2,113 nt of DNA from Escherichia coli (GCF_013315695.1 NZ_CP054361.1); one strand, 5' to 3'; numbered from the stretch's first letter, positions 166 to 801 are shown. Notes: a model not told the origin generated them from the letters alone. Translations and numbers: made by a program.

Positions 166-294
166 ATGCAATCTCTAGTGCTCTGTCTATCCTGCATTAT
201 CCTCAGCATTATCCTCAGCATTATCCTCAGCATTATCCTCAGCCTTGCCAACTCGACACCAATGCAGGATAGACAATCCGATGTCAAATGTTAA
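166..294 (+). CDS. Hypothetical 42-aa hydrophobic peptide reading through the tandem repeat (MQSLVLCLSCIILSIILSIILSIILSLANSTPMQDRQSDVKC); speculative
   Basis: ATG at 166 follows an in-frame TAG at 151-153; stop TAA at 292-294. The 12-bp repeat is in frame and encodes IILS x4, giving a roughly 25-residue hydrophobic segment followed by a charged tail. Only a weak SD (GAG at 158-160). All three frames through the repeat are open, so this may be an artefact. Confidence 0.15.
   Translation: MQSLVLCLSCIILSIILSIILSIILSLANSTPMQDRQSDVKC
195..242. repeat. Tandem direct repeat, 4 perfect copies of 12-bp unit CATTATCCTCAG
   Basis: Identical units at 195-206, 207-218, 219-230 and 231-242. A degenerate partial copy (TATCCTG) lies at 188-194 and the array decays into CCTTGCC at 243. 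Confidence 0.95.
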
Positions 295-620: not shown

Positions 621-801
621 GGTGATCGGGTGTGTGGAAAAGGTTGGGGTAAGCCGTTCGGGGGTGCTTGTTTTGGGGGGTTAAAATTGTGGTTATTTTT
701 TGCGCAATTCTCGCGCGTGATCCTTGTATTTATACTTAAGGGATAAATGGCGGATATGAAATAGTGGTTTAGCCCAGTAATGACGAGGCTTTGAGTGGGT
801 T

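Follow-up and report, generated by a model that had tools for sequence, protein, structure and literature searches.

Among described plasmids, one of the closest to the locus reported here is pBuzz, a small cryptic E. coli rolling-circle plasmid (Moran & Hall 2019, cited in PMC11389934 and PMC6807383). According to those citing papers, pBuzz has no relaxase; it has captured two oriTs from a conjugative plasmid, which lie in inverse orientation, and it is mobilised in trans. Twin oriTs are also known from IncX plasmids, among them R6K, where they are called alpha and beta (Avila et al. 1996, as cited in PMC10123127); the account in PMC3402527 places two oriTs of IncX plasmids in long inverted repeats, near taxC and near rep. 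The relaxases of IncX plasmids are assigned to MOBP3 in PMC3394729. Orphan-oriT or "pOriT" plasmids, in the description given by Ares-Arroyo et al. (PMC10123127), have no relaxase or mating-pair genes and carry a helper-like oriT. In a follow-up survey, 2-kb Col(BS512) plasmids are classed as non-transmissible, without evidence of mobility, and make up 10% of E. coli non-transmissible plasmids (bioRxiv 10.1101/2024.01.30.577996).

The window, by which we mean the whole 2,113-nucleotide stretch of E. coli DNA analysed here, is the complete circle of a plasmid of this last kind, and it carries two inverted oriT-like units on either side of a 12-bp tandem array. It resembles pBuzz as summarized in the citing papers, being a small relaxase-less rolling-circle plasmid with two inversely oriented oriT-like units, but where the oriTs of pBuzz are of the I-complex (B/O) type, those of the window are of the IncX4 (MOBP3) type and belong to two hairpin subtypes. 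Moreover, across the forms of this plasmid the predicted nick sites face each other only 34–106 bp apart, with a nick-core-derived variable-number tandem repeat (VNTR) between them. With the IncX twin oriTs the window shares two inverted copies, facing nick sites and the unit boundaries (the IncX4 repeat is exactly 91 bp, AGAGCC to CATTG). In IncX4 plasmids, however, the nicks face across 6.7 kb that includes rep, the two copies do not differ and the plasmid encodes its relaxase in cis, whereas the window has a 70-bp gap, copies of different hairpin type, and neither taxA nor taxC. It also fits the published outline of pOriT plasmids, although the same survey left its replicon type, Col(BS512) (PTU-E47), among the non-transmissible. 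The IncX4 oriT type, the presence of two hairpin subtypes on one plasmid and the close convergent nicks with a VNTR between them are what set this locus apart from the known systems. On the comparisons below, we favour with moderate confidence a reading of the array as a hypermutable minisatellite lying in the gap between two head-to-head, relaxase-less IncX4-type oriTs, one that would change length by slippage and would have no sequence-specific binding role.

The plasmid itself is common and well represented in databases as the pKYM/Col(BS512) rolling-circle type. PLSDB holds dozens of 2113-bp records that are 100% identical to the window, and the Shigella sonnei plasmid pKYM (NC_001378.1; 2083 bp; Col(BS512) replicon) shares 99.5% identity with it. 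Hosts of these 2-kb plasmids include E. coli and also Shigella, Klebsiella, Salmonella and Enterobacter, and the pKYM region is present in 240 of 5426 complete E. coli genomes (~4%). Three of the complete-genome copies are labelled chromosomal; they are probably assembly artefacts, since at least one, the only one seen (NZ_CM167660.1, 4955301–4955557), lies near the end of its record. An 88-codon conserved open reading frame (WP_001024536.1) runs from 1964 to 2113 and on into 1–117, so the window is a circular permutation of the entire plasmid. This frame directly adjoins the left oriT unit; its product, which we considered as a relaxosome accessory protein, has no Pfam or NCBIfam match.

Replication functions lie well away from the array. 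The rep gene, encoding RepK (321 aa), occupies 995–1960 on the + strand, by our ORF call and by the "protein rep" annotation of pKYM NC_001378.1. The nick region of the rolling-circle double-strand origin lies at 698–746 (+), with TCCTTGTATTTATACTTAAGGGATAA at 721–746, ~480 bp from the array; we take it to resemble the nick motif of pC194. It is 94% identical to that of a pKYM-family relative (L017), whose Rep is just 69% identical to that of the window. Two further features of the plasmid are recorded here as observations. At 554–597 a hairpin is followed by a T-run, and 554–589 is 94% identical, in inverted orientation, to 773–808 of an otherwise unrelated 1408-bp plasmid (L006); the element could be a shared single-strand origin (sso) or terminator module. 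Just upstream of rep, 896–930 is a 25/35 direct copy of the distal-box region of the left oriT unit (132–166), a score reached in 0 of 40 shuffles; an operator or the remains of a third box are two readings of it.

The array was first described from the sequence alone, in an earlier note, as four perfect 12-bp tandem repeats about 750 bp upstream of rep, and both parts of that description are borne out. Tandem Repeats Finder reports a tract at 194–243 with period 12, 4.2 copies, 100% matches, no indels and a score of 100, and a second repeat search returned the identical tract. Within it are four perfect units of CATTATCCTCAG at 195–242 (+), and the array ends 752 bp before the rep start at 995. 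At 38 nt (period 12, from 194), the longest periodic self-match of the window exceeds the maximum of 11 seen in 200 dinucleotide-preserving shuffles, so the array is not a product of chance. Read in the TATCCT register, 195–242 (+) contains TATCCTCAGCAT three times and then TATCCTCAGCCT; five TATCCT copies begin at 188, 198, 210, 222 and 234. The array lies in the 62-nt interval between the arms of a perfect 15-bp inverted repeat (184–198 / 261–275), and a unique 17-bp spacer, CCTTGCCAACTCGACAC (243–259), separates it from the right nick region. Elsewhere in the plasmid, the unit with up to 3 mismatches has just two extra matches (311 and 1836), against a chance expectation of 1.5. An Rfam scan of the whole window gave two sub-threshold chance matches alone, and comparison by eye with the IHF and XerCD site consensus gave no fit.

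Two finer points of the earlier description do not hold. What had been taken for a degenerate fifth unit (183–194, CTGTCTATCCTG) matches the repeat at only 5 of 12 positions in register; it is the nick core of the left oriT unit and not a decayed repeat. Its true relation to the repeat is TATCCT--GCAT against TATCCTCAGCAT, a 2-nt indel. The proposal that 12 bp is close to one helical turn fails against the 10.5 bp of a turn: each unit adds ~51 degrees of rotation, and bound proteins would therefore not sit on one face of the helix.

The suggestion that the array might be a slippage-prone VNTR, by contrast with the phasing argument, is supported, and its status as a VNTR is confirmed. Alignment with related plasmids, which the earlier note had proposed as a check for copy-number variation, shows that unit number ranges from 1 to 7. 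Direct reading gave one unit in L007, two in pKYM and L010, three in L011, four in the window, five in L009 and seven in L008, and every unit is perfect in all of these plasmids. The 2- to 7-unit plasmids have no SNPs in ~830 nt of flank, and the 1-unit plasmid alone differs, by 3 SNPs. Record lengths fit 2077+12(n−1), giving 2089, 2101, 2113, 2125 and 2149 bp for the longer forms; the 1-unit record read directly is 2074 bp, and records of 2076–2077 bp are presumed to have one unit.

The same variation appears at population scale. Among 212 plasmids in PLSDB, identity bands that track unit number hold 38 (≥99%), 84 (95–99%), 80 (90–95%) and 10 (80–90%) members, and the corresponding bands in the 240 complete E. 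coli genomes with the region hold 35, 104, 101 and 1; two and three units are commonest. Because the flanks are identical and the bands track unit number, unit number must change much faster than point mutations accumulate. Of the 25 contigs recovered when metagenomes were scanned for the array, 22 were pKYM-like. The other three (L028, L039 and L042) contain unrelated repeats that have a 24-mer in common with the array by chance. Perfect head-to-tail units, whole-unit length polymorphism in otherwise identical sequences and change that outpaces point mutation are all features of slipped-strand VNTRs (minisatellites). The array differs from ordinary members of that class in that its unit is derived from a relaxase nick core and that it abuts a predicted nick.

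This variability bears directly on the idea, also raised in the earlier note, that the array is an iteron-like site at which RepK is bound or titrated for copy control. The repeats are indeed short, direct and perfect, and they lie in non-coding plasmid DNA, as do the iterons of theta-replicating plasmids. Iterons, however, which are sites bound by the initiator, are typically 17–22 bp long, imperfect, fixed in number, and located in or beside the origin and rep promoter, and the array has none of these last properties. The distance to the nick region is ~480 bp and that to rep 752 bp, neither the origin nor the rep promoter has additional copies nearby, and unit number varies from 1 to 7 in otherwise identical plasmids. 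The phase drift of 51 degrees per unit is a further mark against it. The reported plus origin of pKYM, moreover, consists of a 173-bp RepK-binding core and an HU-dependent enhancer (PMC4439123). We therefore regard a role in RepK binding as highly improbable, and this part of the earlier interpretation is not supported.

A host-factor site, the other binding role that had been proposed, yielded one weak lead. Each unit contains a 9-mer, TTATCCTCA, that matches the DnaA box TTATCCACA at 8 of 9 positions, so the units could be weak DnaA boxes that bind DnaA cooperatively; by our own estimate the chance of such a match is ~0.003 per random 12-mer unit, before correction for the several motifs tried. 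A relaxed-consensus box, TTTTCCACA, also occurs at 633–641 on the − strand, where ~0.13 such matches are expected by chance in the plasmid. Yet the change of A to T at position 7 of the 9-mer breaks even the relaxed consensus TTWTNCACA, and descent from the nick core TATCC accounts for the resemblance. Such boxes are absent from related plasmids, the number of units varies, and DnaA is not known to act in MOBP transfer or in rolling-circle replication. When the literature was searched for the 9-mer, primers alone came up. Cooperative DnaA binding is thus very unlikely to account for the array.

The flanks of the array are homologous to the oriT of IncX4 plasmids, and the geometry of hairpin and nick is conserved between them. 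The right oriT-like unit lies at 260–351 on the − strand, and its segment 260–296 matches both oriT repeats of the IncX4 plasmid pCFSA231 at 37 of 37 positions; high identity to IncX4 is limited to these nick-proximal 37 nt. In pCFSA231 the site occurs twice, ~70 bp upstream of taxA/taxC and next to rep, the two copies forming an exact 91-bp inverted repeat that runs from AGAGCC to TATCCTGCATTG. A site matching 260–296 likewise occurs twice in each of the 33-kb IncX4 plasmids. The left oriT-like unit lies at 127–199 on the + strand. Over 161–198 it matches a site upstream of ddp1/taxC in a second IncX4 lineage (lineage B, pJSMCR1_5) at 34 of 38 positions (89.5%), and over 75 nt (124–198) it shares 89% identity with the one unit that L006, the 1408-bp plasmid, carries.

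All units share a common plan. On the nicked strand each comprises a box AGAGCCWGCGGCAGGC, a spacer, a hairpin of variable sequence, and GTCTATCCTG|CATTG. In the left unit these parts are the distal palindromic box AGAGCCAGCGGCAGGC at 127–142, the palindrome GAGATTGCATGCAATCTC at 158–175, and the nick core TGTCTATCCTG|CATT at 184–198, with the predicted nick between G194 and C195, all on the + strand. Alone among the units extracted, the left unit reads CATTA and not CATTG after the nick. In the right unit, on the − strand, they are the distal box at 351–336, inverted-repeat arms at 328–310 and 291–272, and the nick core at 275–261, with the predicted nick between 265 and 264. A promoter and terminator scan placed a weak promoter-like site inside the right unit (294–266, − strand), which we judge incidental. 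The + and − units stand head-to-head: the two facing nick cores form the perfect 15-bp inverted repeat, and the outer 24-nt arms (124–147 / 331–354), which contain the two distal boxes, complete a palindrome that spans 124–354. The two predicted nicks lie 22+12n bp apart, hence 70 bp in the window.

The exact position of the nick is a prediction. The RP4-type MOBP nick consensus is YATCCTG|Y, and the motif CTATCCTG|CA present on both units of the window fits it. The IncX3 relaxase is 35% identical to IncX4 TaxC, and upstream of IncX3 ddp1 a long inverted repeat is directly followed by TATCCTG|CATCG. When nine unit variants, IncX3 included, were folded as single-stranded DNA, the last paired base lay 7 nt before the predicted nick in all nine. 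Fold z-scores ranged from −2.4 to −6.0 with one exception, the left unit of the window (−5.1 kcal/mol, z −0.9); the right-unit hairpin is stronger (−13.2 kcal/mol, z −3.5) and likewise ends 7 nt before its predicted nick. Both the IncX4 repeat and the homology to the window end 5 nt past that position. Our literature searches found no experimental mapping of an IncX4 oriT and, on the nick consensus string, nothing relevant. An oriTfinder prediction for IncX4, given in PMC6287198, names a different site.

The two units probably differ in specificity. The two IncX4 lineages differ by 5% in TaxC and by 38% in TaxA/Ddp1, and their hairpins differ as well (CAAATGTTAACATTTG versus AATTGCATGCAATT). 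Because the lineages diverge in both the accessory protein and the hairpin, the left and right units of the window probably represent two specificity types.

As single-stranded DNA, the region around the units (~123–357) folds into a very stable structure on either strand (dG −53.7 kcal/mol, z −8.4, on the + strand; −57.9, z −7.7, on the −), with the array as a 62-nt terminal loop. A single-strand origin, an element that rolling-circle plasmids need, is marked by extensive, strand-specific structure and conserved loop motifs, and the palindrome at 124–354 might be that sso with the array as its loop. The palindrome is, however, fully explained by two inverted oriT units that have homologues on plasmids without rolling-circle replication, and the structure forms on both strands. 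It contains no ssoA CS-6 motif (TAGCGT), and a specific function of the loop is hard to reconcile with a length that varies between 26 and 98 nt. A better sso candidate is the block conserved with L017 at 471–746, which has other hairpins. An sso at the array is for these reasons improbable.

Nor does the array look like a protein-coding repeat, a reading in which each unit would add four codons, to an IILS repeat in a frame at 166–294 (+) or to an LRIM repeat in a frame at 287–114 (−). All but one of the six reading frames stay open across the array, and changes in unit number preserve the reading frame. But no record examined has an annotated gene across the array, the conserved oriT palindrome takes in the ATG at 166, both frames overlap the oriT units, and neither has a convincing ribosome-binding site. 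We find a coding function scarcely credible.

How, then, did a tandem repeat come to lie between two oriT units? Insertion of CA ahead of the G in the nick core gives the repeat unit, TATCCT-CA-GCAT, and the tract starts at 194, where the left nick is predicted (194|195). The + strand reads ...TGTC TATCCTG|CAT TATCCTCAGCAT TATCCTCAGCAT TATCCTCAGCAT TATCCTCAGCCT TGCC..., and the 1-unit form already consists of a canonical core followed by a variant core (TATCCTGCAT-TATCCTCAGCCT). In the simplest and most likely history, the nick core would have been duplicated once, and the resulting 12-mer would then have been lengthened and shortened through slipped-strand mispairing. The location of the tract, in the unpaired loop of a very stable hairpin that could form in rolling-circle and in transfer intermediates, would favour slippage. 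We infer that slippage drives the change in length. The array itself probably has no sequence-specific binding role, and its sole likely effect is on nick-site spacing and loop size. The earlier note, supported on the VNTR and not supported on iterons, had missed both the inverted oriT flanks and the apparent descent of the repeat from the nick core.

The adjacency of array and nick admits another history, in which the IncX4 relaxase TaxC made the first duplication and resizes the array by initiating at the true nick and rejoining at a pseudo-nick, or vice versa. In such a scheme the units contain a pseudo-nick, ATCCTCAG|CATT, whose core, TATCCTCAG|CATT, stands against the true TATCCTG|CATT. 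No more than 1 nt separates the start of the array from the predicted nick, the unit differs from the nick core by the added CA, and TATCCTCAGCCTTG, which follows the last unit, once more resembles TATCCTGCATTG. Relaxases are established agents of oriT-specific recombination, as for TrwC of R388 and MobA of R1162, and the nick cores of these plasmids are recombination-active in nature, as the cointegrates described below illustrate. On the other hand, MOBP relaxases need bases −2 to −6 (RP4 TraI), the very bases that the CA insertion displaces, and recognition of the units should be crippled. The units also have no adjacent hairpin, slippage alone accounts for whole-unit changes, and no datum here separates relaxase rejoining from slippage. 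We consider authorship by the relaxase unlikely; in a variant of it, the array may also act as a decoy for the relaxase or keep a safe distance between the convergent nicks.

A more elaborate version holds that the 12-mers are pseudo-nicks written by the relaxase that record conjugative processing, and that array length tunes the spacing of two convergent nicks of different TaxA specificity. We rate this version as decidedly unlikely, but its consequences would be considerable. Either IncX4 lineage could then mobilise the plasmid without staggered nicks, which are 34 bp apart in the 1-unit form, breaking it, and one of the most abundant "non-transmissible" plasmid families of E. coli would be a dual-specificity hitchhiker of the main mcr-1 vector.

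Whichever process sets the length of the array, the junctions of natural recombinants fall inside the nick cores. E. coli CB7286 contains a circular plasmid of 3594 bp (L045, NZ_JBVDMM010000005.1) in which a pKYM-like plasmid is fused as a cointegrate to a pABU-like Col(MG828) plasmid, and both of its junctions fall within 17 nt around the right nick core. The same type of junction recurs in NZ_OZ392471.1 and in one further record; these 2–3 genomes may trace to one event. At the left unit, a single metagenome contig (L032, 1–3634) combines a pKYM-like plasmid with a Col(MG828) plasmid of 1458 bp, with both junctions of the exchange inside a shared 15-nt core. Efficient RecA recombination needs ~23–27 bp, and this core is shorter. 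The join also needs junction-spanning k-mers, and this speaks against an assembly chimera. In complete E. coli genomes, a search for the left junction of this contig found none.

Three other metagenome contigs of 3.5–6 kb (L025, L035 and L037) each contain two divergent pKYM-family replicons, 84–90% and 98–99% identical to the window. One homology block among them starts at window position 354, the outer edge of the right oriT unit, and L025 and L035 also hold ~2.6 kb of additional DNA.

IncX4-type units are not confined to the pKYM plasmids. The relative L017 (NZ_CP115348.1, ColpVC, 1989 bp; Rep 69% identical to RepK) carries two of them at ~200–450, arranged back-to-back with nick sites facing outward, the opposite of the head-to-head arrangement in the window. 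Single units occur on unrelated tiny plasmids, namely pABU (L015, 1566 bp), L014 (4237 bp), L006 (1408 bp) and two Col(MG828) plasmids (L012 and L013, 1458 and 1822 bp). MOB-suite calls some of these single-unit plasmids mobilizable and others not; pABU and L017 carriers are classed as mobilizable and plasmids of the window's own kind as non-mobilizable.

Enrichment of co-occurrence with the putative helper is modest. Across the 5426 complete E. coli genomes, the pKYM region is found in 240 and IncX4 taxC in 228 (union 449), and 19 genomes carry both where 10.1 are expected, a 1.9-fold excess (hypergeometric p=0.0055, with population structure ignored). Same-strain pairs are also found in PLSDB, among them CP135282, from the sole Enterobacter host, with the IncX4 plasmid CP135280, and CP046422 with CP046418. 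Together with the homology of the flanks, we infer from these data that IncX4 plasmids may mobilise the pKYM family. The comparison suggests that a common and supposedly immobile plasmid could be moved by them.

These findings have consequences for how small plasmids are annotated and followed. Database thresholds miss short oriT mimics that retain the nick-proximal region alone. Array length can be used as it stands as a marker to follow the plasmid, and the locus lends itself to asking whether relaxases can create repeats at their own nick sites and how close convergent oriTs can sit. For the plasmid family itself, twin IncX4-type oriT units would explain the spread of pKYM/Col(BS512) plasmids, for which the survey gives no known route, and would link them to IncX4, the main vehicle of mcr-1.
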